From: Candidatus Marinacidobacterales bacterium
GTDB lineage: Bacteria; Acidobacteriota; Vicinamibacteria; Marinacidobacterales; SMYC01
Reading direction: 5' to 3'
Length of the DNA: 64,000 nucleotides
Assembly: GCA_965237955.1 (NCBI GenBank)
Contig: OZ250169.1
Location: 5,597,888-5,661,887, forward strand
A model generated the notes under the pieces. The model was given only the letters and a program-made list of their open reading frames with translations, was not told the origin of the DNA and did no database searches. Shown here one piece after another: positions 7,763 to 38,076 of the stretch (position 1 is the first letter of the stretch; every line of letters starts with the position of its first letter). Made by a program: the position numbers and the translations under genes.

Positions 7763-7790
7763 CCCTATCCTGAACGATCGGTCGCCGCGC

Positions 7791-10373: not shown

Positions 10374-10383
10374 CCTTCCCTAC

Positions 10384-12225: not shown

Positions 12226-12232
12226 TGAGACG

Positions 12233-14612: not shown

Positions 14613-14618
14613 TGGGCG

Positions 14619-18107: not shown

Positions 18108-18316
18108 GCTCTCGAAGAAATCAGTTACACGGCTCGAGTGGTCTCATGAAACTTTCTATCTCAGAATCATTGCCTACGGTGCCGGTCAGGTCGATGGAGT
18201 GGGCAGGGGATTCGGGCGACGGATCCGGGCCGAACCAAATGCCTACGCGCCGGCGATCGTCATCGCATTCGAGCAACATCATCGTCACCAGGCCATCGTG
18301 GGCGTTGTCCATTTCT

Positions 18317-18832
18317 TCAGTGTCGATGGTGCCACGATGGCTGACCCCACAACACTTCGTCGTCAGCGCGATCCAGGCGTCCGCGTGCGACGCGCTCTCT
18401 CAGATCGACGTTGAACCGCTCTCGTTTCAGCGAGTCGACGTTTTCGGTGCGCCCTTCGAAGAAATCGTAGAGCTCCTCGTCTCCGTCGCCGAACGCTGGA
18501 AACGACATGAAGATGAAGCCGTTTCTCGTGTACTCACCGGGTCTGCCATCGTCGGACGGGGGTTGGTCCGAGAGAACCGCGAAGTCGAAAACAAACGGAA
18601 CGGAGAAGGCGGCCACGGTGAAATAGCCGTCCGGGAGCGCCTCGGCACCGAGGATCTCGAGTGCTTTCTCGGTCCGCGCTTCGGGATCGGACATGGTCTC
18701 GCCGAGCTCGCGAGCTTTTTGTGCTCCCCAAAAGCCCAAGCCGGCGACGATGAGAACGAGAGTCGCGATCGCACCCACGCAACCGCAACCGACCCAGAGC
18801 CAAGGTGGGAGCCCTTTCTTGTCGGTACTCAC
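18317..18832 (-). CDS. Hypothetical membrane-anchored protein.
   Basis: One N-terminal TM helix (LWVGCGCVGAIATLVLIVAGLGFW) followed by a soluble domain. A frameshifted continuation into ORF 18121..18312 is possible. Confidence 0.4.
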   Translation of the reverse strand: MSTDKKGLPPWLWVGCGCVGAIATLVLIVAGLGFWGAQKARELGETMSDPEARTEKALEILGAEALPDGYFTVAAFSVPFVFDFAVLSDQPPSDDGRPGEYTRNGFIFMSFPAFGDGDEELYDFFEGRTENVDSLKRERFNVDLRERVARGRLDRADDEVLWGQPSWHHRH

Positions 18833-20050: not shown

Positions 20051-21430
<1,380 letters not shown>

Positions 21431-21491: not shown

Positions 21492-22133
21492 CTATGAGAC
21501 TTCCTGCGTCTCCGTCACCGCGATGAGCTCGCGGCGGCGCCATTCGGGGACGACGACGCCGAGGGAAATGATCATGCGGAGCGCTTCATCCACGGTCATC
21601 TCGAGCTCGATGACATCATCTTTGGGTACCAGGATGATGAAGCCCGAAGTCGGGTTTGGCGTTGTCGGCACGAAGACGCAGACGACTTCCTGTCCGGTGT
21701 GCGCCTGGACTTCACCCAAGTCGCTCGACGTCTGGAAGCAGAGGCTCCAGATGCCTTTTCGCGGGTACTCCATGAGGAGCACTTTTCGGAACGACTCGCT
21801 GCGCGGCGACAGAAGAGTCTCCGCGACTTTCTTGACGCCGGAGTAGACCCAGCTCACGAGAGGGATGCGGGCCAAGAGCGCTTCCCATACTGCGATTAGC
21901 TTTTTCCCGAGCAGGTTGGCGGCAAAAAAACCTGTGACGAGCAGAAGCGTGAACGTCAAAATGACGCCGAGCCCGGGAATGCGAAACCCGAAGAGGTTCT
22001 CCGGACGGAGCGGCGTCGGGATCAACCCGTCCATAAAGCTGATGAAGAGACGCAACAGGAGCAGGGTGACGCCGAGCGGGATCCAGACCAGGAGACCTGT
22101 CGCCAGGTAGCGCCGGATCTTCATTTTGCGCAT
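21492..22133 (-). CDS. DUF502-family membrane protein.
   Basis: N-terminal TM helices and the overall pattern of DUF502 proteins (RRYLATGLLVWIPLGVTLLLL...). Confidence 0.7.
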   Translation of the reverse strand: MRKMKIRRYLATGLLVWIPLGVTLLLLRLFISFMDGLIPTPLRPENLFGFRIPGLGVILTFTLLLVTGFFAANLLGKKLIAVWEALLARIPLVSWVYSGVKKVAETLLSPRSESFRKVLLMEYPRKGIWSLCFQTSSDLGEVQAHTGQEVVCVFVPTTPNPTSGFIILVPKDDVIELEMTVDEALRMIISLGVVVPEWRRRELIAVTETQEVS

Positions 22134-22293
22134 TGGTCAGCCATCGCCGAAGCCTGAAAAAGGCTTCTGTCAGGTTCGTTTTTCAGGATTGTACCGAGCT
22201 CTCGCTCCATTTAACTGTAACGCGAACCGAACCTTGCAGCAAGGGAGCGCCGTTTGGACGAGGGCCCCCTCACCCGGCTCGCTCACGCGAGGT

Positions 22294-22803
22294 TCAATTG
22301 TCTAGGCACAACCATTTTTTGAGCTTCGCCATCTGTTCGGACGTCAGAGACTGGTCGTCCAGGATTTGCACGAGGTGTTCGCGATTGCGAGCGAGCGGTT
22401 TGTAGCCGCAGCCGTCGAAGAGCTCGGGGCTTGTTTGCTCGAGAAGCGGGCGGGGGTAGTCGCGGCACATACCCGGCGGTGACTCGTAGCTGTCACAACG
22501 TCTCGTGTCCACGTCGAAGTGGGTGCATTTGAAGATGAACGCCTTGTCCTCACGGCGCGCTTCGACGAGGTCGAAGCCATTGATCTTGGCATGCCACCAC
22601 AGGAAAACCTGGCGAATGAAAGGGAAATACCAAGTGAGCTTGCCGACTCGGATGCCGGGCTCTTCACAGCACTTCGCACAGCGGACGCATTCACCACCGA
22701 GATCGTAGCGGACATCGGCCTGAGCTCGGTGCAGCCACAACCGGGCGTAGTAGACGCCGAGGCTGATGCGCTTCACGCTCCGCAAAAACGGACCGTCTCT
22801 CAT
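22294..22803 (-). CDS. YkgJ/UPF0153-family cysteine-cluster (zinc/iron-chelating) protein.
   Basis: CVRCAKCCE motif plus the downstream CTHFD...C...C pattern typical of YkgJ. Confidence 0.7.
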   Translation of the reverse strand: MRDGPFLRSVKRISLGVYYARLWLHRAQADVRYDLGGECVRCAKCCEEPGIRVGKLTWYFPFIRQVFLWWHAKINGFDLVEARREDKAFIFKCTHFDVDTRRCDSYESPPGMCRDYPRPLLEQTSPELFDGCGYKPLARNREHLVQILDDQSLTSEQMAKLKKWLCLDN

Positions 22804-22821
22804 CCCAATGTCATCCCAATT

Positions 22822-24591
22822 TCATCGAAGCAGCGTCGAGATCTCCTGGATGCGGCGCTCCAACGCTCGAGATTTGTCAGCGGCGCCGTAAAGCTCGCGC
22901 AGCTTTTCGGGGATGAACATGGGGTCCGTGCTCTCGCGGATGGCAACGAGTTGTTGAAGCTCTTTTTCGAGACCGTAGTCCGGTGTTCGAAAATGCTCCA
23001 GGGTCTCGCGAATGTGCTCGGCCGTCGGGGCATCGGCGCCTGCGATCGCGGCGCGTCGAACGCATTGGACGAGAAGGCTTTCGATGTCCGCACCCGAAAG
23101 CTCGGGGGGCAGGGGAGGAAGAGCTTGCTCGTCGATTCTGACGTCGTTCTTGCGCGCCATCGCCATGAACATTTCTCGACGGGCCGCTTCCGTTTCGGGC
23201 GGGAAGAGAGGAATGTGCACTTCGCACCGTCCCTGGCGCTTCAAGTCGACAGGGAGCAGATCCGGCCGGCAGGTGAGAAGCACCCACAGAATTTTTCCCC
23301 GGTAGCGCGTGTCGCTCATGAGCGACGAGATCATCGCGAACATGCGACTCGACGTGCCGCTGTCACCACCGGCGGACCGGCTTCCCAGCGCCGCGTCGGC
23401 CTCGTCGATGACGACCACGACCGGTCCGAGCGCTTTGATGACCGACAACACTTTTTGGAGATTGCCTTCCGAGCTTCCGACCCACTTGCTCCGCAGATTC
23501 TTGAAGACGATGGTCGGGATGCCGAGACTGCCGGCTAGACACATCGCGGTAAACGTCTTGCCGGTTCCGATCATACCGCAGAGCAAATAGCCCATCGGCA
23601 ACGCTTCCAGGCGTCCGTCTTTGAAAAGCCGAACGTCTTGCTCGAGCCGCTCCTTCACCGCGTCGGGCGCGACCACGGTATCGAGATCGTAGCTCGGCGC
23701 AACGAATTCGACGAGACCGAAACATTGTTTTTCGATGAGCTCTTTCTTGGCTTCGCGGAGTCTCCCGAGGTCGACGTGATTGCCTTTGGCGCCGGAGCTT
23801 CCGACAGCCTGGCCGAGTCCTATTAGCGTGAGTCCGTTGGCCTCACGGGCAACGTCTCGAGCAGCCTTCGCACCTTCGACGAGCGTGCGCGCGTAGTTTT
23901 CGCGCGTAGCCTCGTCCGGCAGATCGACCTCGACCTTGGAGATGAACGGGTTCTCGACGATCCGGCGGTTGACGTCGCCAAGCGCGTCGGCGACGAGGCA
24001 GAGCGTGACGTCCGCACCGCGGATGCCGGGATCGTTTGCCCAGTTGAGGACTTTGATGAGGGTCGCTCCGAGCTCGCCACTCAACATCGAGCCGTCGACC
24101 GCAGGCGTGATCGTCTCGATATAGCGGATGACGATGGCGAGGCTTTTGCGATTCCCGTTTTTGGGTGTGTCGACGAGCTTGTGAAGGATGTAGCGGTCGA
24201 GGAGCTCGAAAACGAGCTTCGGATCCTTGGCGCGCGAGTTGGCGTAGCTGGTCCCGCTGATGAGGTCGATGGCTTTGAGGGTCTTGTGAAAGTCTTCCTG
24301 CATCGCCTGTCGCCGGTCGCTGTCGCCGGGCGCGAGGAAGCGAACGCCGCTCCCACGGTCGTAGCTCAAGACGATTTCGCGCTGGCCGAAGAGCTGTGTC
24401 GCCAGGTAGTGCTCGAGAGATACAAACTCGTCCGCATCCCGCCGCCCGGGCCCGTTGGGCCCGGTGAGGACGACGGGGACGAGATCGTGGACGTTGCCGT
24501 GGAGGAGAAAGACGCTCGCCGCACCGCTGACATAGCTCAGAGCGAGCTCACGCGCCCATTCGGGAGCGCTACGGCCCAAAGGGTTATTCAC
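22822..24591 (-). CDS. Classical-clade AAA ATPase with a large N-terminal domain of unknown function (~350 aa).
   Basis: Walker A GMIGTGKT, Walker B VVVIDEADA, and an SRH-like region with arginine fingers (TCRPDLLPVDLKRQGRCEVHIP). The ATG at 24696 overlaps pspA, so the start is more likely the GTG near 24591. Confidence 0.7.
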   Translation of the reverse strand: MNNPLGRSAPEWARELALSYVSGAASVFLLHGNVHDLVPVVLTGPNGPGRRDADEFVSLEHYLATQLFGQREIVLSYDRGSGVRFLAPGDSDRRQAMQEDFHKTLKAIDLISGTSYANSRAKDPKLVFELLDRYILHKLVDTPKNGNRKSLAIVIRYIETITPAVDGSMLSGELGATLIKVLNWANDPGIRGADVTLCLVADALGDVNRRIVENPFISKVEVDLPDEATRENYARTLVEGAKAARDVAREANGLTLIGLGQAVGSSGAKGNHVDLGRLREAKKELIEKQCFGLVEFVAPSYDLDTVVAPDAVKERLEQDVRLFKDGRLEALPMGYLLCGMIGTGKTFTAMCLAGSLGIPTIVFKNLRSKWVGSSEGNLQKVLSVIKALGPVVVVIDEADAALGSRSAGGDSGTSSRMFAMISSLMSDTRYRGKILWVLLTCRPDLLPVDLKRQGRCEVHIPLFPPETEAARREMFMAMARKNDVRIDEQALPPLPPELSGADIESLLVQCVRRAAIAGADAPTAEHIRETLEHFRTPDYGLEKELQQLVAIRESTDPMFIPEKLRELYGAADKSRALERRIQEISTLLR

Positions 24592-25342
24592 TGGATTCGG
24601 ACGCGGCCTCTTTCTGGGGGCCGACGGTTTTCTCGGTCGCTTCCGACGAAGGCTCGGCGAGTCCTTGCTCGATCTTGAATTGAGCCAGGAGCTCACCGGC
24701 TGCGACTTGGTCCGCCGCCTGCTTTGCCTTGAGCGCGTCGATGCCCTGATCGCTCAAGTCCGACGCGACCTTGGACCGGGCTTTCGCTTTGTTGATCTGA
24801 TCGTCGACCCGGCTCATGATGGCGTCGATATCAGACGACACATCGAACGAGGTATTGAGGGCGCCTGCCGTCTCGGAAACTTCGGCGAGCGCTTTCTCCA
24901 TCTGGAGCGCCGCCTTCTTCTTCTCGAGGTCCTTCTTGCTGTTGCCGATTTCAGTGAGAGCCGCCTTCATCTTCAGAAGGTTGTTCTCGTAGTTCTCTTG
25001 GTGCTGGGCGAGCTGCTCGTTGTTGCTCTCGAGCCCGTCTTTGACTCGAGAAAGCTCCAGTGCGAGCTGGCCGGCCATCTCTTCCTGATTGGCCTTTAGA
25101 TGGTTCTTGATCTGTCCGGTGAGGCTCGAGATCCGTGAGGTCTCGCTTGCGACTTGTGCCTCCACTTTCAGAACCAGTGCCTGATAGGAGATGAGCCCCT
25201 GGCGAGCCTCTTTCAGGCGTTCGGTAGCCTGCTGGAGTTTCGCCTCAGCCAGGGGGATGACGTGCTTGTCCTCCATCTCGGTGACGGACTTGTTGAACAA
25301 GGCGTACCAGACTGCTTGGATGCGCGCGAAAAGTCCCATCAC
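24584..25342 (-). CDS. pspA: PspA/IM30 (Vipp1/LiaH) family protein of the ESCRT-III superfamily.
   Basis: MGLFARIQAVWYALFNK... N-terminus resembles PspA (MGIFSRFADIVNANINALL). The ~250-aa product is an all-helical coiled coil with a charged C-terminal tail. Confidence 0.65.
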   Translation of the reverse strand: MMGLFARIQAVWYALFNKSVTEMEDKHVIPLAEAKLQQATERLKEARQGLISYQALVLKVEAQVASETSRISSLTGQIKNHLKANQEEMAGQLALELSRVKDGLESNNEQLAQHQENYENNLLKMKAALTEIGNSKKDLEKKKAALQMEKALAEVSETAGALNTSFDVSSDIDAIMSRVDDQINKAKARSKVASDLSDQGIDALKAKQAADQVAAGELLAQFKIEQGLAEPSSEATEKTVGPQKEAASESSE

Positions 25343-25404
25343 TGACTCCCTTCGATGATAGCTAGTGGAAGAATCCTAACAGCAATACTTTTCAACGGAA
25401 AGGA

Positions 25405-25547
25405 GGAAAGACGCGAAGGCGCAAAGGGGATCGATGGCTCGTCCGGATCCCGATGCGTGATCCTTCTTTGCGTCTTTGCGTCTTAGCGCCTTTGCGTTAA
25501 AAAGCATCATGTCGCGGATTCCTCTTGCGCCTTGGCGCCTTTGCGTT
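25405..25547. repeat. Intergenic cluster of GCGCCTTTGCGTT / CTTTGCGT repeats, one of which is inverted.
   Basis: Contains gaaggcgcaaagg (inverse orientation), a tandem ctttgcgt x2, then agcgcctttgcgttaaaaa and ggcgcctttgcgttaaaaaa. Confidence 0.5.
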
Positions 25548-25555
25548 AAAAAACA

Positions 25556-28500
25556 TCACGTAGTGCTCTCGTCGGCCTCGGCCTCGGCTTCTTCAGTGTC
25601 GGTCATGTTCGATAGCGCCGAGACGTTGATCTTTTCGAGGGCCTCGACGAGCTCGGGGATGTCGTCGACGTATTCCAGTTTGCTGATGAGTGCCTTGATG
25701 TTCGGATCGTCGACGCCACGGTAGCCGCGGAAGCGATGGGCCATGAAGCGCATCAGCGGGATCAGCGTACCCTCGATGAGGTAGGACTCGCGCGAAATGA
25801 GCTCGTAATCCGCCGGCGGCGCCTCGGGTTCGGCGTCGGGCGCGACTCGCTGCTTTTGACCGTTCCCGAACGCCTCGAGGAGCTCGTGCAGCTTTTCGGT
25901 GTACGGTGAGAGGTCAAGCTGGACGTCTACCTGCGCTGGTTTGGCCGCGGCGGAAAACGCGGCCAGGTCGGGATCGACGGACAGTGCGGCTGGGCGCGAG
26001 CCAGCTTTCTCTATAGCGCGGTCGATGCTCTCGCCGATGCCTTCGAGGTGCTCGGACACCATGCTGAGCTGACCGGTGAGGCGTGTTGCCGGGTCATCCT
26101 CGCCACTGCCCATGCGTTGGATGCGGACGTAGCCCTTCTTGATCTCCTCCCACCGTGCGCGCTGAGCGTCGCTCAACCGTCCCCGCATCTCGCCGAGCTT
26201 GAGGAGATTCTCCTCCGCACCGGTGGTGAGCGTCTGTGATTCACCGAGATAGTGGTCGTCGATGAGGTTCTCGAGCTCTTCGTCGTTCATGGCCGGCACG
26301 ATCTTCTCCGTCAGCTTGTTCATATTGCGGTAGCTCCCCTGGAGACGGAACGGGGGCTCGGTGCGATAGGCATCTTCTTGCGAGGCGGAGCGGATGTATT
26401 GCTGGTTGACGGCGAGCAGGGTCTGCTGCACCTTCAAGAGCTTTTTCAGCACCGACTGGATCTCGCCGATCTCCACCGCCGAGTAGCCGTGCTCGAGCTG
26501 GTCGGATTGAATCGGCTCTCCCTGAGCCATGCGCACGAGCATGACGATATCGTTCTGCTCTCGTGTCGTCAGCGGTGCGAGCACGTTGTTCGACGTCAGT
26601 GAGTTCTCGATGTAGGAGAGCGCGAACAGATCGCCTTTGCCTTCGAGAATGTCGCCGAGGTTATAGGTGTCGGCGCGGTTGGCGAGCATGTCCGGGATCT
26701 GGAATTTCTCGCCTGACTCGGTGTACGGGTTTCCCGCCATACACACGATGAACTTCTTGCCTCGCAGATCGTAAGTACGGGTGCGTCCCTTCCATACACC
26801 TTCCACTTTACGCTGAGCGTCGCACAAAGAGATGAACTTCTGGAGGAACTCGGGATGCGTGTGCTGGATGTCGTCGATGTAGAGCAGAACGTTGTTGCCC
26901 ATCTCGAAGGCGAGATTGAGCTTTATGATCTCCTGACGCGCGGTCGCGTTCCCTGCCTCCGCGGGATCGAGTGACGTGACCGAGTGGCCGAGCGCGGGCC
27001 CGTTGATTTTCATGAACACTAGGCCGAGGCGGTTGGCCAAATACTCCATCAGCGTCGTCTTGCCGTAGCCCGGTGGCGAGATGAGAAGGAGCATGCCCAT
27101 CAAATCGGTCCGCTTGTCTGCGCCGAGCGCTCCCATTTGCTTGGCGAGGTTGTCGCCGATGAGAGGCAGGTAGACGTCGTTGATGAGGTGGTTGCGCACG
27201 AACGACGACATGACTTTGGGCTTGTATTCGTCGAGGCGCAGGGCGTCGCGCTCTCGTTCGAGGACGGCGTGCCGCGCTTTCTGGAAGTCACGAAAGCCGG
27301 GAACGAGGCGGTAGCGGAAGTGGCCGAGGCGCGACAAGAACTCGTCGAGGTGGAGCTCCATGCGGCCTTGTTGAATCCGTGGATGCTGGCCTAGCAGTCC
27401 TTCGATACTCAATTTCGCCTGCGCGCTCGATGTCTCCCGGCTCACCTTGCCTTCGAACAAGATCGCGACCACGGCTTCTTGAGCGGCGCGCGCCGTTTGA
27501 TTGGTCTTCTCGAGAAAAGCCGTCACCCACGCGAGGGCAAGATCGTAAGCGCGCACCGGTGATTCTCGAAGCCCACGAAGATCCTGCTCAAAGTCACGCT
27601 CGGCGCTGGATTCGCGCAAATGCTTCTCGAACGCCTTCTTGAGCTCGTCGGCTTCCGCGCTCAAAACGAACTTCTGCGGCTCACGCGCGATCTCTTCGAG
27701 GAGATAGGCACCCGCGCGGCGCGCGGCGCGCTCGGGCACGTGGATGCCGAGCTCGGCCAGATGCTCGGCGATCGCGGTGTTGAGCTCGGAGCCGAGATCG
27801 GTGAGCGCGTCACTTGTTTCGAAGTGCGTCCGCAGGCGATGCAAGCTCTTCGCCTGGTTTTCCCACGTCGTCCGCTTCTTGCGGTCCGGGTAAAGAGCCC
27901 AGAACACGGTGGCGAGGGCTCGCGCTGTGGGCGTGAACGCAGGAGATCGGCGCTCTCGTGCATGCCGAGAGTTTTCTGGAGGATGAGCGTGGCGTCGGCA
28001 TCGTGGAGGCCGCGCTCGTAGCCTTCGTCGTAGCGCTCGGCCGCGTAGTCCCGCACGATGGCGAGAAGCGCGTTGTCCACTCGGGTGGCCTCGTGAAGCT
28101 TGGCCAGTGACAGTCCGGCGTCGCCGATCTCGGCGTCTTCGAGAATGCAATAGGCGAGGTACTCCGAACGATAGACGTCGTCGGTTTCCGAGACCAGTTC
28201 TTGCGCCCAGAAGTCACGCGTTTTGGCGAACTCCTCGTCGTCGATCTGCTCATAGAAACCGGTGCCACTCAGGTGGAACGCCATACCGTCTTCGCGCGGC
28301 ACCATCGTGAGCTCCAACGGCTGGGTGTTGACGCTGAAGCGATGGCGTCCGAGCTTGATGACGTTAGCGCCGTCTTCGTAGATTTCTCGCCGATCGCGCA
28401 GACCTTGCGCGGCGTCTTCTTTGGCGGCTTTGAGCCGGCCATCGAGCTCGTCGGCATGCACCGAGTTGCCGAGCTCTCTCAGGTTGGCCGCGGTGTTTCG

Positions 28501-30936
28501 TAGCTTGGCGACCATGGGGTCCGAAGCGAAGTATGCGTTCAAAGCGTCGGAGCTTTCGAACTTCTCGGCGCGTCTGGTGACGCTCCCGAGGATGCGATCC
28601 GCCGCATGCATCAAGTTCTGCGCTCGTCGTTGGCGCCGGTCGACGAGCGATTGCTTCTTGGAGCTGAACGCTTCGTAGATCTCTTCGCGCTTGGTGGTGA
28701 GCTCGGTCACGAACTCGTCGAACTCGGAAAAGCGGGTTTCGAGGTCTTCGAGCTGCAGCATGAGCTTCGAGAGTTGCTCGTCGCACTTCTCCGGCGAGTC
28801 GGAAAGCGCCAGCGCGCTGGTGACGCTTTGGCTCAGCAGCTGAAACTGGACGCCGAACTCGGCCACGCCTTCTTTGCCGAGAAGCTCTTTGCGCCGGTTG
28901 GCGATGAGCGCCCGCACGCGGTTGAGGCTTCCCATGATCTCGGAGATGTTGCTGAGAATCTGGGTACGGACGGTCGCATCGTCGATCTCGAGCGAGCCGA
29001 TGACGTCGGTAAGGAGGTCCAGGCCGTCACTGAGCTCCTGCAACGACGCCTGGTGGTCGTCCGCCTCGGTGACTTTCGAGAGTCCGGCGACGCCTTCTTC
29101 CAGCTCCGCCGCGCGTTGGTGGTAGGGAAGCAGTGCTTCGGCTTTCAACAGGAAGTCGACCGCCCGCTCGCTCACCGTATCGAAGCGCTCGATAATCTCC
29201 GCTTCGAGGGCGTCGATGTGCGTCAGGTCGACGTAGCGCACTTCACGGAGCGTGATCAGGTGGCCCCGGGCCGAGCGCAGGCTGGCCAGACAGGCGACGA
29301 ACTGATCGATCGACGTCCACGAATCGGGATAGATCGTCCGGAAGAGCTCCTGGATTTTCTCGGCGGCTTCTGCGACTGCCTTTTTCGCGTCAGCACGGAG
29401 CGCCTCGACTTTCTCGAACTCGTCGATGATGCTCTCGGCGGTCTCATGAACTTCGTCGAGGACTTCGCGCAAGTTCCCGATTTCGGCCTCGTCGAGCCAG
29501 TAGTAGCTGTCGATGACGCGCGCGGTAGCGGCGACGAGGTCCTCGTACTTCTGGCGCGTCGGCTGCTGCTCGTCGACCATGCGGCGGATGCTGAGGCAAT
29601 CGGAGACGCCGCGAACGAGCTCGGCGTTGCCGACTTTTTCGAGAAACGATCCCGTGGGCGGCAGCGCTTTCACGTGCTCGTCGCTCATGAACGGCGTGCG
29701 CCACAGCTGCATGTTGTGCACCCGCTTGGGCTCGTCGGTGTCGGCGCGGAAGATGATGACGGTGCCGTCAGGGAAGAGACTGAACCCGTGACAGGTGAGG
29801 GGATTATCCACTTCCTTCCGGATCATGTTGTACGGGAGCAGAATCGTGCGCCCCGCCTCGCGCTCGTGGAACGCGTACAGCACGTCCTCGCCGTTGGGGG
29901 AGCGGATGCGGCGCAAGTACTCCATCCCTTGGATCTCGCGTTCGAAAGATTTGGTGTGTCCGCTCTGCAGGTAATAACCGCCCGGGAAAATGATGCCGTG
30001 GTCTTCGGGAAGCTGGACACAGGCCTGACCGATCGCATCGATGCGATCGACTTGTTGGGTCCGGGTGTTGAACACGAGATATCGATACTCGGTCTCGCGG
30101 TAGGGGAGGACCTTGAGCAAGATTAGCGTGCCCACTGTTGCGTAGTGGACTTGGGCGTCGTCGAGCGCCTGGTCGGCATCGAGCACCGGCTCGCGATAAA
30201 TGCCCTGGCCATCCTCGGTGTTGTTCTCGACTTTAATTGTCAGGTCGCCGCCGAGCGTCTCGACGAAGACTTCGTCGAGAATGTTGACGTGGGGGTAGTG
30301 GCCCTGGATGTGGTCCTCGCGCACCGTCGCAGTCCATTCGAAATCGTGGGTCGGAGGGAAGACGTGGTCACGCTCGCCGCGGTTGTCGATGTAGCTGACG
30401 GCGCCGTCGGGTGCTACCGCCCAGCGAAACACGCGCACGTCGTCAATCTTCTCGCCGATTTGGAACACCGCGAGCAGCTTTTCGCCGACGCTTCGCAGCT
30501 GGAGGAGCTTGGTTTGCTCATAATAACGATAGAGCTCCTGGAACTCCTCGATGAACTTGGGGTCGGAGAGGAAGTAGCCGGGCGCATCCTTCGAAACACT
30601 TCGCAACGAGATACCCTCGTCGGTCTTCTCGAACGTATGCAGGCTGAAGACGTCTTCGATGTGCGTCTGGCGCTTGAGGCCGATGAAGACGTTGTAGCCG
30701 AACAGAAGGTAGTTGCCGACCTCCTTGATGTCCCGGGGAACACAGTTGTTCTCGGTACGGATCCGTTCGTTCCCGAGAACGGCGAGATCGGTGCCGCCGA
30801 AAAGCTCGAGGCGTTTCTTGTTGAGCGTCTCCGCCCGCTCGGCCAGGACTTTCCCGTGGCCGAGAAGGCGGTCGCGAATGATCTCGTAAGTGCCGCGCTC
30901 GATCTCGACCTTTTGGACGTCGGTGCTGGTGCTCAT
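25556..30936 (-). CDS. Giant (~1,790 aa) protein: N-terminal beta-rich domain, long coiled-coil region, an AAA_5/MoxR-type P-loop ATPase domain and a helical C-terminal domain. Its reading frame is interrupted by an apparent frameshift near 27920-27940.
   Basis: ORF 27661..30936 is protein-like up to ~GMHESADLL and then degenerates into Arg/Ser-rich off-frame text. ORF 25556..28150 becomes protein-like from ~ALATVFWALYPDRKK. The downstream part carries Walker A LLISPPGYGKTTL, Walker B NVLLYIDDIQ, and sensor-1/Arg-finger FIVCMAGNPYTESGEKFQIPDMLANRAD, matching MoxR/AAA_5. Confidence 0.6.
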
Positions 30937-30968
30937 TGCCTAATACCTAAAACCTGATGCCTAGCGCC

Positions 30969-33032
30969 CTAGAGCCTGACGTCGTCGATGCCGAGTGCCT
31001 TGGCCTGACGCTGGAGCTTCTTGAGCTTCTCGAGGTCGTCTCCTCCCGTGCCGGTGTCAATTTCAGTGGCGAGCTTCGCCAGGAGCGCGCCGATGGTGAT
31101 GTCTTTCAACGTGCCGCCATCGATCCCGGACTCCCGCATCGCCTGACGGATCTCCTGGATGATGTTCTTGTCGCCGTTCATGAAGTCCTTGGCGAGGCCG
31201 GAGATGACATCGCTCTTTTCTACGAGCTCGTCGATGCCCTTGCCCATACCGATGGAGTTCACCATACGGTCGAGGAAGGCGCCGTCGCCGCCGACGATGT
31301 CGATGTCGGCGGATTCGAGGGCCGTGGCGAGGATCTTGGCCTTGTGCGCGGCAACGCTCTCCCGAGCTTGGATGGCTTCGAGCCCGAGTACCTTCTCGTT
31401 CTCGATGCGCAGGCGGTACTCTTCGTGCGCCCGGCTGTCCTTGTCGAGAGCTCGCATCGCTTCGGCCTTTTCGGCAATACCCTTGGCTTCGGCGGCGAAT
31501 TTGTCGGCGACAGCGTGCGCGTGGGCCGAGCCCTTTGCGCGCACGACGGTAGCCTCGGCGGTGCCCACCTTCTCGACCGCGGCGGAGTCGGCTTCGCGAA
31601 CACGTACTTCCGCGAGACCGTGCTTCTCGGAGGCGATGGCGTCGGCTTCTTTGACGCGGGCGGCGGCGAGACCTTGGGCCGCGGATTCGGCCTGGACGCC
31701 TTCGGCGATGCGAATCTTGGACTTGGCTTCGCGATCGGCGGCTTCGAGCTCGGCGTCGGCCAGGGTGACGAGCTCGACGGCTTTGTGCTTCGCGGCCTGC
31801 TCCTGAGCTTCGGCGGCCTTGATGTCCTTGACGAGCGCTTCCTCGGCCTCGGCCTCGGCGGCGATGACCGTCGCTTCCTTGTTGCGCTTCGCTTCCTCGA
31901 CGACCTGAAGCTCTTTGATGCGCTCCTGCTCCTCGACGACGGTGCGCTCGACGGCGACACGCTCACGGATGACGTCTTGGATCTCTTTGCGCTCGACTTC
32001 GAGAGCTTTCTCTTTGTCGATGCGTAGAAGCTCGACCTCACGTTCGCGGATTACGGCTTCGAGCTGGCGGTCTTTCGCGACACGCTCGGTCTCGACCCCG
32101 ATGACGCGCTCGCGGTTTTTCCCAGCAACCTGGACTTGTCGGTTCTTGTTCTCTTCCGCGACCATGACTTCTTCGTCGGTCTTGATGCGGGCTCCTTCGG
32201 ATTTCAGCCGTTCTTCCGCCTGGACTTGCATCAGTAGCGCGGTTTCGCGGGCGCGGACGGATTCGATCTCGCGCTGTTGCTTGGACTTCGCGTCGGCCTC
32301 TTCGCGGTCGAGCTCGAGAATGACTTTGGCGCGCTCGACATCTTGTTTCTTGATGGCTTTTTCTTCGTTGTTCTCGAACTCGTTAGTCTGGACGTGCTCG
32401 ACCGCGGTGAGCTCGGTGATGCGGCGGATACCTTGGGCATCGAGGATGTTCTTGGGGTCGAGGTGCTCGAGGGGGGTCTGCTCGAGGTAGTCGATCGCGG
32501 CGTCTTCGAGGACGTAGCCGTTCAAATCGCGGCCGATGAGCTCAATGATGGCGTCGCGAAACTCATCGCGTTTGGTGTAGAGATCGACGAAGTCGAGCTG
32601 TTTTCCGACCGTTTTCAGCGCCTCGGAGAACTTGGCGCTGAAGAGCTCGTCGAGCGTTTCGGGGGAGGAAGCGCGGGCGCAGCCGATTGCTTGAGCGACT
32701 TTGATCACGTCTTCGACGCGCTTGTTGACGCGCACGAAGAACATGACTTTGATATCGGCGCGAATGTTGTCGTGGCAGATCAGTCCGTCCTTGGCGCGGC
32801 GGTCGATCTCGATCGTCTTGACCGAGATGTCCATGACCTCTGCTTTGTGGATGACCGGCAGAACGAAAGCGCCGGTAAACGTCACCTCGGGCTCTCGCTT
32901 CATTTTGTTGACGACGAGCGCCTTGCCCTGCTCCACCTTGCGGTAGAACTTGGACACCATCATCAGGAATCCCCAGCCGATGATGATGAGCGCTACGACA
33001 CCCACCGCACCTAGAAACACTAAATCCATCAT
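30969..33032 (-). CDS. Flotillin: an SPFH/band-7 domain followed by a long EA-rich coiled coil, YqiK-like.
   Basis: N-terminal TM helix, an SPFH domain (KALVVNKM...FVLPVIHKAEVMDISVKTIEI...), then ~300 aa of E/A/R/K heptad repeats characteristic of flotillins. Confidence 0.8.
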   Translation of the reverse strand: MMDLVFLGAVGVVALIIIGWGFLMMVSKFYRKVEQGKALVVNKMKREPEVTFTGAFVLPVIHKAEVMDISVKTIEIDRRAKDGLICHDNIRADIKVMFFVRVNKRVEDVIKVAQAIGCARASSPETLDELFSAKFSEALKTVGKQLDFVDLYTKRDEFRDAIIELIGRDLNGYVLEDAAIDYLEQTPLEHLDPKNILDAQGIRRITELTAVEHVQTNEFENNEEKAIKKQDVERAKVILELDREEADAKSKQQREIESVRARETALLMQVQAEERLKSEGARIKTDEEVMVAEENKNRQVQVAGKNRERVIGVETERVAKDRQLEAVIREREVELLRIDKEKALEVERKEIQDVIRERVAVERTVVEEQERIKELQVVEEAKRNKEATVIAAEAEAEEALVKDIKAAEAQEQAAKHKAVELVTLADAELEAADREAKSKIRIAEGVQAESAAQGLAAARVKEADAIASEKHGLAEVRVREADSAAVEKVGTAEATVVRAKGSAHAHAVADKFAAEAKGIAEKAEAMRALDKDSRAHEEYRLRIENEKVLGLEAIQARESVAAHKAKILATALESADIDIVGGDGAFLDRMVNSIGMGKGIDELVEKSDVISGLAKDFMNGDKNIIQEIRQAMRESGIDGGTLKDITIGALLAKLATEIDTGTGGDDLEKLKKLQRQAKALGIDDVRL

Positions 33033-33063
33033 CGAAATCCCCCTCTTACAAAACCGTAAAGGC

Positions 33064-33819
33064 TCACGATTCCTCCGTAACTTTGGCGGCTTCGGTGAGC
33101 GCTGCGTCCACCGGGCCTATGAAGAAGACCCCTTCGGACGGCTCATATCGGTAAACGAGTGCCTGCGCACCTCGTGTCAGCCCGTTGTCTTGCGGACAAC
33201 GGACCTCGGCAACGAAACCGGCACCGCCGTCTTCGATCTCGGCGCGGCCGAAATTTCCATCGACGCGTGCCGAAAGCACGGTGCATATTTTGCCGATGAG
33301 CGACGCGCGGCGTGGAGCTTGCTGCGTAACGAAGAGCTTGCGGAAGGGCCGGGAGCTGATGGCCGCCATGATGAGAGCGCCGAAACCGGACGTAACGGCG
33401 ATGGCGAGTCCAACGATCACCGTCGCGGCCAGCGGTCCCAGGAACCTGGTGCTCAAGTAGCTGAGGATCCAGGCCCAGAAGAGCACGAACGTGCCCACGA
33501 TCGTGATCGGCATCCCGCGGACGCCCATGGCGTTGAGTAGACCGCCCAAAAGGCCACCATCCTCGCCGTCTGCGGCGTCGGCGTCGGCAGCGCCCTCGGC
33601 AGCCCCTTCCGCGACACCTTCAGCACTGGCGTCGAGCGCGCCGTCGATTGATTCAGCCGCGCCTTCGACCCCGCCGTCCGCCACTCCTTCGATCGACTCG
33701 AGCGCCCCGTCGAACGCGGCATCCATGCTGTCGAGGCCGAGGACGCTATCGAGAAAGTCGAGATCGAGTGCGCCGAAAATCACGACCATCCAGTACAGTG
33801 AGCGCCATCGCCAGGGCAC
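33064..33819 (-). CDS. YqiJ/NfeD-like membrane protein (DUF1449) with an OB-fold C-terminus, partner of the flotillin.
   Basis: TM helices, an acidic GA-rich linker, and a C-terminal NfeD-like beta domain (GKICTVLSARVDGNFGRAEIEDGGAGFVAEVRC). It precedes the flotillin gene by 31 bp, as yqiJ precedes yqiK in E. coli. Confidence 0.6.
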   Translation of the reverse strand: MPWRWRSLYWMVVIFGALDLDFLDSVLGLDSMDAAFDGALESIEGVADGGVEGAAESIDGALDASAEGVAEGAAEGAADADAADGEDGGLLGGLLNAMGVRGMPITIVGTFVLFWAWILSYLSTRFLGPLAATVIVGLAIAVTSGFGALIMAAISSRPFRKLFVTQQAPRRASLIGKICTVLSARVDGNFGRAEIEDGGAGFVAEVRCPQDNGLTRGAQALVYRYEPSEGVFFIGPVDAALTEAAKVTEES

Positions 33820-34239
33820 AGGTGAATGCGATCGTGGGAAACGACACGAGCGTTGTCAGAAACTCCTGCACTCTTTCGGCTCCTTTCGACTGACTCGTTG
33901 CGGGTGGCCCGATGCGAGACGATCGCGGGCGATCACGCGCCGACCGATGCAACAATGAGGCACCCTGCTAAGGAAGCCCCTTCCGTTCGATAGAAAGCTA
34001 TCGGTACGTGAGAATCGTGAAATCGGTTGTGAATGTGCCGGTTGTAGCGATTCGGGCTTTTTCAGACCCGAACTCTGCGACTAATAGTAAGGGAAGTCCG
34101 ACCGAAAAATCAAGCGGGTAGCGTGTTTCGTGAATGCTCGGTGTGGTTCGGAATTGCGCTTGTGAAAAAGAAGTTCGGTTCTCCTGTCGTTTCGGGGGAT
34201 CTGATTTGTGTTGGAGGGCATGGCCTATGGACGCTGCCG

Positions 34240-34533
34240 CGATTGTGGAAAACGCCGGAAACTCCGGGCGAGAGAGGCGTTTAGGGAAAGGTTGTGAGCA
34301 CGTACAAACGTGGAGCGGCGTTTTCCACAATCGCTTGGAAAACGCTTCGCGTTTCCCACGAGCGCCCACAGGCCCCTCCTGATATATATACAAGAAAGAT
34401 TAATTCATATGGAATAAGGAAGGGGGGGCTCGATTAGTGGAGGCTATGGAAAACGCCCTTCCAGGCTTCGAAGAGAACTCAGTCGTGAGCAAGGTCTGAA
34501 CGACCAGAACCGTGGGGGCGTTTCCCACAGCCT
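34240..34533. repeat. Array of five copies of a ~12-bp motif GTGGAAAACGCC or its complement, including a perfect 17-bp inverted repeat.
   Basis: cgattgtggaaaacgcc (34240-34256) and ggcgttttccacaatcg (34317-34333) are exact reverse complements. Further copies sit at 34336-34363, 34445-34460 and 34517-34533, all in an AT-richer non-coding stretch. Confidence 0.5.
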
Positions 34534-34599
34534 CGTCTCCCGCTGAGGGGCAGTGGCATTTGGTGAGGCCCGTGGGTTGAGAGGGTAAGCCATGTGTAG

Positions 34600-35880
34600 A
34601 TGCGCATCGGCGAGAACGCTAGAATCTTTTTTTCCGAAAGAGAAAAGAGCGTTCCCGCGATGCGCGTTACTACGTTAGTCAACAAGCTCATCGGATTGCA
34701 AGGCCTGTGGGTCCGAGGTTTCCACTTCCAGGCGGACAAAGCCAGAGTGGTGGTGGATGTAGTACCACGGAGGAGGAAGCCTCTGTGCGGGATTTGCGGA
34801 CGAAAGGTCCGCAAGAACAAAGATCGCTACAATCGCTACTGGCGGCACTTGGACCTGTTCGGAGTCCGGACCTATCTTCGCTACTCGATCCGACGAGTGG
34901 TATGTCGGCGGTGTGGAGTGGTCAGAGAAAAGGTGCCTTGGGCCGACAAGGGAAGCCGCTTTACCAAAAGCTTCGAACAAGAGGTAGCGTGGCTGGCACA
35001 GAGGACGGACGTCAGCGCCGTAGCGAACTATTTCCGAGTGACGTGGCGTTCGGTGCGACGGATCATCCAGCGAGTGGTTGCCGAGCAGCGGGATGAGCGG
35101 CGCGAGCTCGATGGATTGCGGGTGATTGGGATGGACGAGATCAGCTACCGCAAACGCCACAAGTACTTAACAGTGGTAATAGACCATCTCAGCGGCCGGG
35201 TCGTCTGGGCGGGAAAGGAGCGCAAGGCCAAGACGCTGCTGCGGTTTTTCCGCAAGCTCGGACCACAAAGAGCCGCGGAGCTCGAAGCGGTCAGCATGGA
35301 CATGTGGGAGCCGTACATAACTGTCGTCGGCAAAAAGGCTCCTCAGGCACGGGTGATCTTTGACCGCTTCCACATCGTCAAGCATCTGAACGAGGCCGTG
35401 GATAAGACCCGGCGCGAGCTGGTGCGCGAGCTCAAAGGGACTGCCCGGCGCAACCTCAAGAACACCAAGTTTCCCCTTCTCAAGGCCAAACACAACCGCA
35501 GCGCGAAAGACAAACGGGTGCTCCGCGAGCAGGTGCGAGCTAATCGTCGCCTCTACCGCGCCATGCTTCTGCGCGACGACTTCATGGACCTCTACACCTA
35601 CAAAACCGAGACATGGGCCAAGAAGTTTCTCCGAGGATGGCTGCGGCGCGCTATGAGCTCGAGGATAGAGCCCGTCAAACGCGCGGCGAAGATGATCCGC
35701 AGCCACTTCGATGGCGTCATCGCGTGGGTCACGTGGAGACTCAGCAACGGCCGACTCGAAGGAATGAACAACAAAATCCGGCTGCTGAGCCACCGCAGCT
35801 TTGGACTCCACTCTGCCGAAGCTCTCATCAGTCTCGTCTACCTAAACTGTGGCGGTCTCACCCTCGAGAGGATCCACTGA
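34600..35880 (+). CDS. ISL3-family transposase.
   Basis: The full-length (~420 aa) sequence matches the ISL3/IS204/IS1001/IS1096/IS1165 transposase family (zinc-finger-like CGICGRK...CRRCG N-terminus, DDE region with IGMDEIS... and SNGRLEGMNNKIR). The start is probably at MRVTTLV (34660). Confidence 0.8.
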   Translation: MRIGENARIFFSEREKSVPAMRVTTLVNKLIGLQGLWVRGFHFQADKARVVVDVVPRRRKPLCGICGRKVRKNKDRYNRYWRHLDLFGVRTYLRYSIRRVVCRRCGVVREKVPWADKGSRFTKSFEQEVAWLAQRTDVSAVANYFRVTWRSVRRIIQRVVAEQRDERRELDGLRVIGMDEISYRKRHKYLTVVIDHLSGRVVWAGKERKAKTLLRFFRKLGPQRAAELEAVSMDMWEPYITVVGKKAPQARVIFDRFHIVKHLNEAVDKTRRELVRELKGTARRNLKNTKFPLLKAKHNRSAKDKRVLREQVRANRRLYRAMLLRDDFMDLYTYKTETWAKKFLRGWLRRAMSSRIEPVKRAAKMIRSHFDGVIAWVTWRLSNGRLEGMNNKIRLLSHRSFGLHSAEALISLVYLNCGGLTLERIH

Positions 35881-36079
35881 AATGGCAGGAGAGGCAGAAG
35901 TTCTTCACTTCCGTTTGGCCGGGTCTTGGTTGGCAATGTGTTGTCTTCCGTTTAAGTCTATTTGTGTCATAGCGTTGGGTGCCGGCGGTTTCAGCGTGTG
36001 AACGAGAAGCTGCGCGTTCGCATTTTCGCCTTGACAGAGTCAAGGTGCGCTATTAATGTCTCACTCGGGGATGGTTGAA

Positions 36080-36630
36080 ATCCCTCGCCTTTAGGCGAAG
36101 CCTTTAGGAGGCTTGGGGTACGATCCCCAGGTGAAAGGATATCGTAAATCATCGCACACGACGTACCAGTTAAACTATCACTTCGTATTTATCACGAAGT
36201 ACCGCAAGCCGGCCTTGAGAGGGGATGTAGCGGTTCGTCTCCGGGATCTCATCCGGGAGATCTGTGCTCGGAACCAGATAGAAATACTGAAGGGTCATGT
36301 GCGGCCTGAGCAGTTGCATCTGTTACTGAGCGTGCCGCCGAATTTGTCGCCGAGTCGAGTGATGCAGTTGATCAAGGGTAAGACGTCGAATCGTCTGATG
36401 CGAGACTTTCGGACGATGCGGAAGGAGTTCTGGGGTCGGCACCTATGGGCACGGGGTTACTTCGTGGTGACGACGGGCAACGTGACGGATGAGGTGATAG
36501 CGAAGTATATAGAGTTGCAAGGTGCCGTGCCCCAGGACGACGATTCTTTCAAGGTTAGCGAGTAGTGAAACGAGGCAAGGACAAGCCGACTTTAGTCGGC
36601 GACGTGAACCCATCGCCTTTAGGCGATGGA
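36080..36630 (+). mobile_element. IS200/IS605-family insertion sequence of the IS200 type (tnpA only).
   Basis: The palindrome CGCCTTTAGGCG occurs near both ends (36086-36097 and 36614-36625). An additional hairpin GCCGACTTTAGTCGGC lies at 36585-36600, and the element encloses the tnpA CDS. Confidence 0.6.
36113..36565 (+). CDS. tnpA: IS200/IS605-family Y1 (HuH) transposase TnpA.
   Basis: The 150-aa product has HuH YHFVFITKYR and the catalytic-Tyr region typical of IS200 TnpA. It uses a TTG start preceded by AGGAGG. Confidence 0.8.
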   Translation: MGYDPQVKGYRKSSHTTYQLNYHFVFITKYRKPALRGDVAVRLRDLIREICARNQIEILKGHVRPEQLHLLLSVPPNLSPSRVMQLIKGKTSNRLMRDFRTMRKEFWGRHLWARGYFVVTTGNVTDEVIAKYIELQGAVPQDDDSFKVSE

Positions 36631-36857
36631 GCGCACGCGCTCAGTATTGGTCTACCCAACACAACAGAATATAATAATATGTTCTTCGTTTGTGCTTCCA
36701 ATAAAGGCATATCGCCAGGGGTCCGCATAAGGCCTGTTCATTTTTTATGCCGGGCCTACCATCCATCGACCGAACCCGCTAATTTATCCTGCTTTATCTT
36801 TAACCTCGTCCTGAACTCTCCACATACATAATCCCTGGCAGCTTTTGTTGGGACACA

Positions 36858-37009: not shown

Positions 37010-38074
37010 ATGAAATTGTCTATTACTACTTTGCCGGGGGATGGGATTGGGCCGGAAGTTGTTGCGGAGGCGATGAAAGTGCTCGAAGCGGTCGCCTCTC
37101 GGTTCGGTCATGAGCTGGATGCCAATGCTCATCCTTTTGGATCGTCTGGGCTCGATGCAGCGGGGAGCGGTTTTCCCGACGAGACACGCGACGCATGTCT
37201 GTCGGCGCCGGCGATCGTTCTTGGTGCGGTCGGGGATCCTCGACACGATCACTTGCCGCCGAACGAGCGGCCGGAGCGGGCGCTTCTTCATCTTCGGCGG
37301 TTGATCGAGAGCTTCGCTAATTTGCGGCCGGTGGTTGCGCAATACGTTTCGCCGAGCTCGCCGTTCAAGGCGGAGACGCTGGACGGCGTGGATCTTTTGA
37401 TCGTTCGTGAGCTTACCGGCGGGCTCTATTTCGGAGAGCCGCGTGGTTTCGAAGGCGACGGGAAGGATCGACGGGCCTTCAACACGATGACTTACAGCAG
37501 CGGTGAGATCGATCGTATCGCCCGTGTTGCATTCGACGCGGCGATGAAGCGGCGCCGGCACGTCACGTCGGTCGATAAATCCAACGTGCTGGAAACGTCG
37601 AAGCTCTGGCGCGAGGTCGTCGACGAGGTCGCGAAGGACTATCCCGACGTGACGCTCGAGCACATGTTCGTGGATCGGGCGGCGATGGAGCTCATCGCGC
37701 ATCCTGCGGGCATCGATGTCATGCTCACCGGGAACCTCTTCGGCGACATTTTGAGCGACGAGGCGTCGATGCTGGCGGGCTCAATGGGGTTGCTGCCGTC
37801 CGCGAGTCTCGGCGGAGACGTGGGGCTCTATGAGCCGGTGCACGGCTCGGCGCCCGATATCGCGGGTAAAGGGATCGCGAACCCGATAGGGGCGATCGCC
37901 TCGATGGCGATGATGCTCCGCTACTCGTTCGACCTCGCGGACGAAGCCAAGTTAGTCGAGCGAGGAATCGAATCGGCTTTCGCCAACGGCTTTCTCACCG
38001 CCGACCTGAGCGATGACGCGAAATCCACCGAGGAGGTCGGCGATCACATCGCGCGATATGTGACCGACTCCTGA
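37010..38074 (+). CDS. leuB: 3-isopropylmalate dehydrogenase.
   Basis: MKLSITTLPGDGIGPEV... N-terminus, plus the LTGNLFGDILSDEASMLAGSMGLLPSASL signature of isocitrate/isopropylmalate dehydrogenases. Confidence 0.9.
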   Translation: MKLSITTLPGDGIGPEVVAEAMKVLEAVASRFGHELDANAHPFGSSGLDAAGSGFPDETRDACLSAPAIVLGAVGDPRHDHLPPNERPERALLHLRRLIESFANLRPVVAQYVSPSSPFKAETLDGVDLLIVRELTGGLYFGEPRGFEGDGKDRRAFNTMTYSSGEIDRIARVAFDAAMKRRRHVTSVDKSNVLETSKLWREVVDEVAKDYPDVTLEHMFVDRAAMELIAHPAGIDVMLTGNLFGDILSDEASMLAGSMGLLPSASLGGDVGLYEPVHGSAPDIAGKGIANPIGAIASMAMMLRYSFDLADEAKLVERGIESAFANGFLTADLSDDAKSTEEVGDHIARYVTDS

Positions 38075-38076
38075 TC

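Follow-up and report, generated by a model that had tools for sequence, protein, structure and literature searches.

Juxtaposition of separately conserved flotillin–giant ATPase and PspA–tandem AAA ATPase gene modules in a Candidatus Marinacidobacterales genome

INTRODUCTION

Do seven tightly packed genes on one strand of a Candidatus Marinacidobacterales genome encode a single bacterial counterpart of the ESCRT-III/Vps4 machinery, or do they bring together systems that are conserved apart from each other? The question is raised by a stretch of 64,000 nucleotides (nt) from contig OZ250169.1 of assembly GCA_965237955.1 (positions 5,597,888 to 5,661,887, forward strand), which was analysed as a whole and is called the window here, its first letter being position 1. 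An earlier note, written from the sequence alone, had read seven minus-strand genes of the window as one candidate ESCRT-III/Vps4-like system. Their products were named as an NfeD/YqiJ-type protein, a flotillin, a giant ATPase, a PspA/IM30 protein, a classical AAA ATPase, a YkgJ protein and a DUF502 protein, with gdhA downstream. By sequence matches, the best named relatives of the window proteins belong to Acidobacteriota.

We find that the cluster is made of two modules, each of which is conserved without the other. Module A comprises the genes for the YqiJ-like protein, the flotillin and the giant ATPase; module B comprises those for PspA and the other ATPase, which carries two AAA cassettes and is called the tandem AAA below. 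The membrane-maintenance theme of the earlier note is supported. On our reading, two modules for maintenance of the cytoplasmic membrane, each conserved independently, have probably come to lie side by side in this lineage, and in this genome they are likely to be co-transcribed and to cooperate.

RESULTS AND DISCUSSION

Modules A and B are conserved separately

We scanned one genome per species for the giant-ATPase gene and examined the best 80 of at least 595 matching loci, together with a close relative of the window, L001. These 81 loci are drawn from Myxococcota, Actinomycetota, Gammaproteobacteria, Acidobacteriota and Planctomycetota. In 79 of them the giant gene is immediately preceded by the flotillin gene, and in 73 a YqiJ-like gene stands upstream of the flotillin; every other neighbour family is limited to 16 of the 81 or fewer. 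Window-type genes for PspA, the tandem AAA, YkgJ, DUF502 and GdhA are found at a single one of these loci, L001. By tblastn, the PspA–AAA pair was undetected in 78 of the 80 loci from the genome scan, the other two (L030 and L076) giving weak AAA matches.

The tandem AAA was surveyed in 80 metagenome loci at 40-82% identity. Flotillin, YqiJ-like and giant genes are present in none of these 80. PspA is a frequent neighbour. A same-strand PspA gene lies 57-222 bp upstream in ∼22 loci and 3.4-4.7 kb upstream in ∼16, and among the 25 distant loci whose upstream sequence reaches 4.8 kb or more, which we took as enough flank for this comparison, 21 have PspA upstream of the tandem AAA.

Seven PspA–AAA loci were examined individually. 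L001 (∼94% identity) and L089 (96.4% over 19 kb) are close relatives and were used for DNA alignment; the others are L083 (79%), L087 (72%, giant protein), L084 (68%), L085 (56%) and L086 (46%). PspA adjoins the AAA gene in L001, L083, L084, L086, L087 and L089, and the two share an operon in L085. The order YqiJ-like, flotillin, giant ATPase, PspA, tandem AAA is kept in L001, L083, L087 and L089, that is, down to 72% identity of the giant protein, and the giant gene is intact in L083 and L087. L084 has window-like synteny, with genes for a sigma factor and for DUF8173, TerB and Iso_dh proteins upstream and gdhA downstream. It carries only PspA, AAA, CxxCxxCC and DUF502 genes, with a 366-bp gap in place of module A. 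In L085 and L086, PspA and AAA belong to an operon with genes for a PBP-OmpA protein, a permease and an ABC ATPase.

Because each module is conserved without the other, and the two are adjacent only in the window's clade, the cluster is best described as A plus B. The neighbourhood comparison suggested in the earlier note recovers the two sub-clusters as co-occurring units, which are not associated by chance, and confines the full seven-gene order to close relatives. The idea of a single seven-gene system is not borne out: A and B are conserved separately, no tandem AAA locus (0/80) has a flotillin or giant gene, and L084 has B without A.

PspA is paired with a tandem AAA ATPase

The first gene of module B (24584-25339, minus strand; ATG start at 25339) encodes a protein of 251 aa that matches Pfam PF04012 at 37.1 bits (cut-off 33.9) over residues 3-214. 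The family profile aligns over its full length with solved Vipp1 (sll0617; E = 5.9e-8, residues 1-217 against 1-210), and the PspA/IM30 identity proposed earlier is thereby upheld. By these matches PspA belongs to the ESCRT-III superfamily, for which polymer formation and membrane remodelling are predicted. Near its C-terminus (24584-24700), the peptide F-[KR]-[IV]-E-x-G-L ... K-[TE]-[VL]-G-P is kept in AAA-paired PspA proteins as distant as 35% identity and could serve as the tail that the ATPase recognises.

The tandem AAA gene (22822-24591, minus strand) most likely starts at GTG 24591, giving 589 aa and an 8-nt overlap with the PspA stop, and the two genes are apparently translationally coupled. 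A Pfam AAA match (1.8e-21) and two arginines of the second region of homology (SRH), R452 and R455, agree with its earlier placement among classical AAA ATPases. The N-terminal part had been taken for an uncharacterised domain, with AlphaFold suggested as a way to look for an MIT-like fold. In an AlphaFold2 model built with 27 homologues (predicted local distance difference test, pLDDT, 84; predicted template modelling score, pTM, 0.82), residues ∼10-290 form an alpha/beta AAA-like cassette plus lid. With Foldseek, the whole chain superposes on D1 and D2 of p97, Cdc48, Rix7 and Afg2 (E ∼1e-18, 550-620 columns); the 'N-domain' is therefore a degenerate AAA cassette. It has HGN[VI]HDL instead of a Walker A motif and lacks the Walker A lysine. 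Across the family, GTGKT, DEAD, an SKWVG pore loop and both SRH arginines are retained in the second cassette, and a profile search of the PDB matched the protein best to D2 of VAT/Cdc48/Afg2 (2e-34).

What the tandem AAA shares with Cdc48/p97-type proteins is the stacking of two classical-clade cassettes. Cdc48 and p97, however, have an N-terminal double-psi-barrel domain and a nucleotide-binding D1, whereas the tandem AAA starts directly with the degenerate cassette and has neither. The likeness to ESCRT-III/Vps4, in its archaeal (CdvB–CdvC) and eukaryotic forms, is that a gene for an ESCRT-III-superfamily polymer stands next to one for a classical-clade AAA with an aromatic pore loop; that of Vps4 reads SKWMG. 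We considered membership in the Vps4 family and rejected it. Vps4 has an MIT domain and a single cassette, whereas the tandem AAA has no MIT domain and two cassettes, and is closest to D2 of Cdc48/VAT/Afg2. The resemblance is one of functional analogy, not of family membership. Thus, of the proposed ESCRT-III/Vps4 parallel, the conserved PspA–AAA pair remains (21/25 distant loci; 7/7 individually examined loci) and the Vps4 architecture does not. According to a 2025 review (PMC7619361), bacteria appear to lack a Vps4-like ATPase. Our literature search found no experimental paper on the PspA–tandem AAA pair, nor on the giant ATPase.

The giant ATPase is a MoxR-like protein of a widespread family

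The last gene of module A (25556-30936, minus strand) would encode a cytoplasmic ATPase of ∼1,793 aa if a 1-nt deletion at 27938 were repaired. Its domains follow in the order DUF3686, a helical/DUF7902 region, a MoxR-like AAA+ domain and a helical C-terminus, and no membrane segment is predicted. The family is large and uniform. It is present in at least 595 species genomes, identity is 55-60% across phyla, and full-length members are all collinear and 1,600-1,900 aa long; matches to the N-terminal 998 aa group into 470 clusters at 50% identity (E ≤ 1e-30).

An AlphaFold model of the C-terminal 793 aa has an overall pLDDT of 74, rising to 87-93 in the ATPase core. The modelled AAA+ core lies closest to MoxR, midasin and dynein and has a beta-hairpin before sensor 1, placing it in the MoxR/AAA_5 clade, as had been supposed; in the model, the giant ATPase is closest in structure to MoxR-type ATPases. 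Its Walker B motif (window 26871-26879) invariably reads LLY[IL]DDIQH across phyla, Asp standing where the catalytic Glu is usually found. From MoxR-family proteins (CbbQ, NorQ) and the midasin and dynein modules it differs in having no VWA/MIDAS domain, a single AAA module in ∼1,790 aa, and DD in Walker B. We found no paper that uses the term DUF3686 and none that combines flotillin with the 'DNA repair ATPase', the name given to the giant protein in the NCBI database.

The flotillin and its YqiJ-like partner are divergent

The flotillin gene (30969-33032, minus strand) encodes 687 aa comprising a membrane anchor, an SPFH domain and an Ala/Glu-rich coiled coil. General-purpose models recognise it poorly. 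The Pfam scan for Band_7 gave no match to the window protein and matched only 2 of 22 family members; the orthologue in L087 does have a Band_7 match. Neither the flotillin nor the YqiJ-like protein was recognised in the NCBIfam scan, and their family profiles found no match among all PDB sequences. A profile of 22 flotillin orthologues nevertheless aligns with E. coli YqiK at 99.9% (hhalign, E = 5e-32, 388 columns), covering the SPFH domain and the coiled coil. Residues 1-19 are hydrophobic (mean Kyte–Doolittle value 2.48), indicating a single N-terminal membrane anchor. By profile comparison, the protein is a YqiK-type SPFH flotillin with a long coiled coil, which sustains the earlier assignment.

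The NfeD partner proposed for it fared less clearly. The gene upstream of the flotillin (33064-33871, minus strand) encodes 268 aa if one extra A at 33799 is left out, and is frameshifted as written. Its family profile aligns with E. coli YqiJ at 93.4% (hhalign, E = 2.5e-7, 129 columns over the membrane segments and the C-terminus), and the protein carries hydrophobic segments. The 251-aa 'NfeD' protein had no match in the Pfam scan, and among 22 family members YqiJ_N matches two and NfeD one (0.021). The profile match supports membership in the YqiJ/YuaF (short NfeD) type, without being conclusive for the C-terminal domain. E. coli yqiJ–yqiK and B. subtilis yuaF–floT share the two-gene NfeD–flotillin unit, its gene order and profile-level homology with the window. 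They differ in that those operons have no giant ATPase, and in that the window's flotillin and YqiJ-like families have diverged so far that Band_7 and NfeD of Pfam miss most members.

Two genes of module A are frameshifted in the window

Seven minus-strand reading units span 21492 to ∼33871. The open reading frames (ORFs) lie where the earlier note had placed them; two frameshifts had been missed, and three starts (YqiJ-like, AAA and PspA) needed correction. The YqiJ-like gene starts at GTG 33871, preceded by an AAAGGAG ribosome-binding site, and not at 33819. The giant protein, described earlier as a single chain of ∼1,790 aa, is in the window split between two overlapping ORFs in different frames (27661-30936 and 25556-28150), the former with Pfam DUF3686 and DUF7902 and the latter with weak AAA/AAA_5 matches. 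In the DNA alignment, the window lacks one G at 27938, reading CTGC-GTTC against CTGCGGTTC in L001 and L089. Homologues at 95-96% identity are one 1,797-aa protein and read CTGCGGTTC at the deletion site; those at 82-95% identity are single proteins of 1,793-1,801 aa and read ...ADLLRFTPTARA... over the junction. In the YqiJ-like gene, the A at 33799 is likewise extra relative to L001 and L089, and its removal restores the 268-aa protein.

A third 1-nt indel found only in the window, an added G in a G run at 18348, shifts the frame of a gene at ∼18123-18832 (minus strand). That gene encodes an unrelated 236-aa hypothetical membrane-anchored protein and is intact in L089. Because this indel breaks an unrelated gene, the frameshifts are not confined to the cluster, and the notion of decay specific to module A is weakened. 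The frameshifts may be long-read assembly errors instead of genuine mutations. Unless they are, module A may be non-functional in this genome.

The gap between the modules

Module A and module B are separated by 25340-25555 on the minus strand. This gap measures 213 bp in the window against 60-74 bp in L001, L083 and L087, a short direct repeat having been inserted in the window. Its two copies, TTTTAACGCAAAGGCGCyAAG, lie at 25482-25502 and 25531-25551 (minus strand), and a further copy with three mismatches lies at 38073-38093 (plus strand), after the Iso_dh gene, where ∼0.01 chance matches are expected. The repeat may be a small intergenic repeat element or, putatively, a binding site for a regulator. 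The coding strand of the gap has no terminator-like hairpin. Promoter and terminator scans were uninformative, with results at or below shuffle expectation, and Rfam gave no match in the window. Co-transcription of A and B is plausible.

Module A is linked to PspA-family genes elsewhere

In 16 gammaproteobacterial loci, corresponding to 16 of the ∼21 with enough upstream sequence, genes for DUF2170 (YjfI) and PspA_IM30 (Pfam 2e-49) stand directly upstream of module A. A cultured example is plasmid pQBR103 of Pseudomonas fluorescens SBW25 (L170/L171, NC_009444.1 84437-97641), where an annotated cluster of ten co-directional genes runs YjfI, PspA/IM30, rhomboid, DUF2491, DUF350, DUF1190, GspS-family, YqiJ-like hypothetical, SPFH, 'DNA repair ATPase'. 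The YjfI(DUF2170)–PspA dyad is absent from the window and its clade, and the window-type and YjfJ-type PspA proteins are only weakly related (hhalign 42%); the two associations are therefore independent and do not go back to one ancestral operon. Judging from these comparisons, PspA-family genes appear to have joined module A at least twice, and a functional link between PspA and module A is plausible.

A tandem AAA homologue, too, occurs beside module A outside the window's clade. L076, a Planctomycetota metagenome-assembled genome, encodes a full-length homologue (27% identity, 3e-41), degenerate first cassette included, at 3894-6759 (minus strand), divergent from the adjoining YqiJ-like, flotillin and giant genes (6912-14809). 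A 296-aa coiled-coil protein that precedes this homologue was considered as a PspA/Snf7-like candidate and discarded, no similarity being detectable.

Two further features of gammaproteobacterial loci may be recorded here. In eight loci (e.g. L040 9598-9837), the flotillin and giant genes are separated by a small ORF of TerB/EF-hand-like type. Module A is followed downstream by a PLD-family gene in 10 loci or by a rhomboid gene in 8, with examples at L036 15146-15835 and L040 15208-15774.

YkgJ, DUF502 and gdhA

The three genes that the earlier note placed after the AAA gene are located there, and their ties to the cluster differ. The YkgJ-like gene (22294-22803, minus strand) encodes a CxxCxxCC protein of 169 aa (Pfam PF03692, 5.5e-5), and DUF502 (21492-22133, minus strand) a membrane protein of 213 aa with two hydrophobic segments (Pfam DUF502, 4.4e-35). 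A YkgJ-like gene follows the AAA gene with 4-nt overlaps in L083 and L084. It contains indels in L001 (18060-18470) and an in-frame stop in L089 (11792-12301), and in L087 IS66-family genes stand in its place (16661-18817). Because the rest of the cluster is intact in these three relatives, YkgJ seems dispensable to it. DUF502 is present in L001, L083, L084 and L089. Among the 80 distant AAA loci, YkgJ occurs in two and DUF502 in one; they are companions of module B in the window's clade only. The gdhA gene (20051-21412, minus strand; Pfam) varies in position among L001, L083 and L084 and is an unrelated bystander.

Published precedents

The earlier note regarded the architecture as uncharacterised, which does not hold for its parts. 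From a comparative-genomic study whose conclusions rest on sequence analysis alone, Ravi et al. (2024, mSystems, PMC11237479) described operons of the form CesT_Tir → YqiJ-YuaF → Band-7 + coiled-coil + flotillin → beta-propeller + coiled-coil + AAA-ATPase, linked to PspA, with PLD in some Proteobacteria; abbreviated forms without PspA are widespread. The same study (text and Table S3) reports a dyad of PspA with 'inactive classical AAA + classical AAA', including PBP-OmpA/permease/ABC/TM-Snf7 operons. PspA with Band-7/FloT and NfeD was described in Acidobacteriota by Popp et al. (2022, PMC9239133).

The three core genes (YqiJ-like, flotillin, giant ATPase) and their order are common to the window and the flotillin–giant operons of Ravi et al., and we re-found the full form, with DUF2170, PspA and downstream PLD, in Gammaproteobacteria. 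The window differs in having no CesT/Tir (DUF2170) gene, and in that its PspA lies downstream, belongs to another subfamily and is paired with the tandem AAA. With the published PspA–AAA dyad it shares the dead first and active second cassette and the pairing with PspA, and L085 and L086 reproduce the long ABC-type operon; in the window's clade, by contrast, the flotillin module precedes the dyad and YkgJ-like and DUF502 genes follow. Both modules are thus already known from comparative genomics. In the literature we searched, the direct joining of A and B in one co-directional cluster, followed by YkgJ and DUF502, was not found described. The window adds a natural locus that joins the two modules, and little else beyond the published neighbourhood analyses.

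Precedents also exist for the combination of protein types. HflK/C with FtsH is an SPFH cage that encloses an AAA+ machine, and MoxR-type remodellers are likewise a precedent. The ATPases belong to different clades, FtsH being a classical AAA protease anchored in the membrane and the giant ATPase a soluble MoxR-like protein with no protease domain; the SPFH subfamilies differ as well. For SPFH with PspA the precedent is the PspA–YdjGHI system of B. subtilis, in which the SPFH protein YdjI is reported to recruit PspA (PMC8581546).

A conditional mechanism and its alternatives

The mechanism that we infer from gene content, domain and fold assignments and conservation statistics is conditional at every step. 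The flotillin, together with its YqiJ-like partner, would assemble into an SPFH scaffold at the cytoplasmic side of the membrane. Onto this scaffold the giant ATPase might dock through its N-terminal domain and coiled coil, and its MoxR-like motor might use the energy of ATP to reshape the scaffold, or a client held in it, or to set either free. PspA would polymerise on stressed membrane. A hexamer of the tandem AAA could then engage PspA, perhaps through the conserved C-terminal peptide, and pull subunits from the polymer, so that PspA is recycled; we propose such extraction because the pore loop is intact and the genetic coupling to PspA is conserved. In this way the tandem AAA would do for PspA what Vps4 does for ESCRT-III, although its architecture is not that of a Vps4 homologue. 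A more ambitious version, in which the five genes of A and B form one membrane-repair pathway in this clade, is possible but on present evidence doubtful. There, the giant ATPase would tune a flotillin scaffold that marks or confines damaged membrane and recruits PspA, whose polymers the tandem AAA would recycle.

Several points count against the two-module reading with cooperation between modules. The adjacency of A and B is confined to one clade and could reflect a neutral insertion of A beside B, and in the window module A has frameshifts in two of its three genes. At the sensor-1 position of the tandem AAA stands Cys, Ser or Ala, not Asn. Walker B of the giant ATPase is DD, not DE, so its activity could be unusual; no VWA/MIDAS partner is found among the conserved neighbours of the giant gene, nor, by Pfam, a VWA/MIDAS domain within the giant protein. 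By sequence, the giant ATPase has no solved relative beyond its Walker A stretch and AAA+ core, and the beta-propeller assignment of DUF3686 is taken from PMC11237479.

If module A had simply been inserted between Iso_dh and a pre-existing PspA–AAA–YkgJ–DUF502 operon, with no functional connection, one would expect a relative such as L084, where the synteny is kept without A, and an adjacency limited to a single clade; the mobile elements active at the site in the window and in L087 would fit as well. We nevertheless judge such a neutral juxtaposition unlikely. PspA has associated with module A independently, in the 16 gammaproteobacterial loci and on pQBR103, a full-length tandem AAA homologue lies beside module A in the Planctomycetota genome L076, and SPFH–PspA links are reported from experiments in B. 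subtilis (PMC8581546). At the other extreme, the seven genes, or five of them, might be one obligate ESCRT-III/Vps4-like machine that works only as a whole. Tight co-directional packing, the five-gene order kept in L001, L083, L087 and L089, the hairpin-free A–B gap and the gammaproteobacterial link of PspA to module A all speak for it. Each module is, however, widespread without the other, YkgJ is disrupted (L001, L089) or replaced (L087) while the rest of the cluster is kept, and YkgJ and DUF502 are missing from most distant AAA loci (2/80 and 1/80 have them). The gammaproteobacterial PspA, moreover, is of another subfamily, has YjfI as its partner and comes with no tandem AAA. Such an obligate machine is thus quite improbable.

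Two functions unrelated to membranes have also to be weighed. An anti-phage defence system built around large ATPases is suggested by weak PADLOC/NCBIfam matches, of the AAA domain to IetA/IteA (9e-14, 3e-13) and of coiled coils to LmuB/JetC. None of these extends past the generic AAA cassette or coiled coil, and the scores fall far short of the family cut-offs (for IteA, 49.6 bits where 510 is required). The locus has neither a nuclease nor any other effector and no defence-island setting, and the conserved partners are membrane-scaffold proteins. We regard this reading as very improbable. That the giant protein repairs DNA is, we think, scarcely credible: the idea comes from inherited names, the Pfam description of DUF3686 and the NCBI label, and the literature search that turned up no use of the term DUF3686 gave it no footing. 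No DNA-binding or nuclease domain was detected in the giant protein, whose near-constant partners are a flotillin and a YqiJ-type protein, the other recurrent ones being PspA, PLD, rhomboid and TerB-like proteins.

The juxtaposition of two maintenance modules therefore remains the reading that we favour, and its interest lies partly in the components. The PspA–tandem AAA pair, seen on hundreds of metagenome contigs, is a concrete candidate for the disassembly of bacterial ESCRT-III-like polymers (PspA, Vipp1). The giant ATPase would seem to be misnamed, its near-obligate coupling to flotillin and YqiJ pointing to an ATP-driven step in membrane-microdomain biology. If the single repair pathway were true, it would be a bacterial functional counterpart of ESCRT-III/Vps4 and give the ∼1,800-aa 'DNA repair ATPase' family its first function. 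For work at the bench, pQBR103 in P. fluorescens SBW25 is a tractable example of PspA together with the flotillin–giant module. The value of the locus itself is tempered, since its neighbourhood relations are in print already and the copy in the window may be defective.

Mobile elements upstream of the cluster

Two insertion sequences lie upstream of the operon in the window, and both are absent from L001 and L089; they are certainly genuine insertions. The nearer, ∼300 bp upstream of the operon start, is an ISL3-family element (34177-35895, plus strand; transposase gene 34600-35880, Pfam DDE_Tnp_ISL3 9.7e-71) with imperfect terminal inverted repeats and an 8-bp target duplication, AGAAGTTC. 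Between it and the Iso_dh gene is an IS200-like insertion (36061-36644, plus strand), whose Y1 transposase gene occupies 36113-36565 (Pfam Y1_Tnp 2.4e-39). The local G+C content is lower (0.564) at the ISL3 element.

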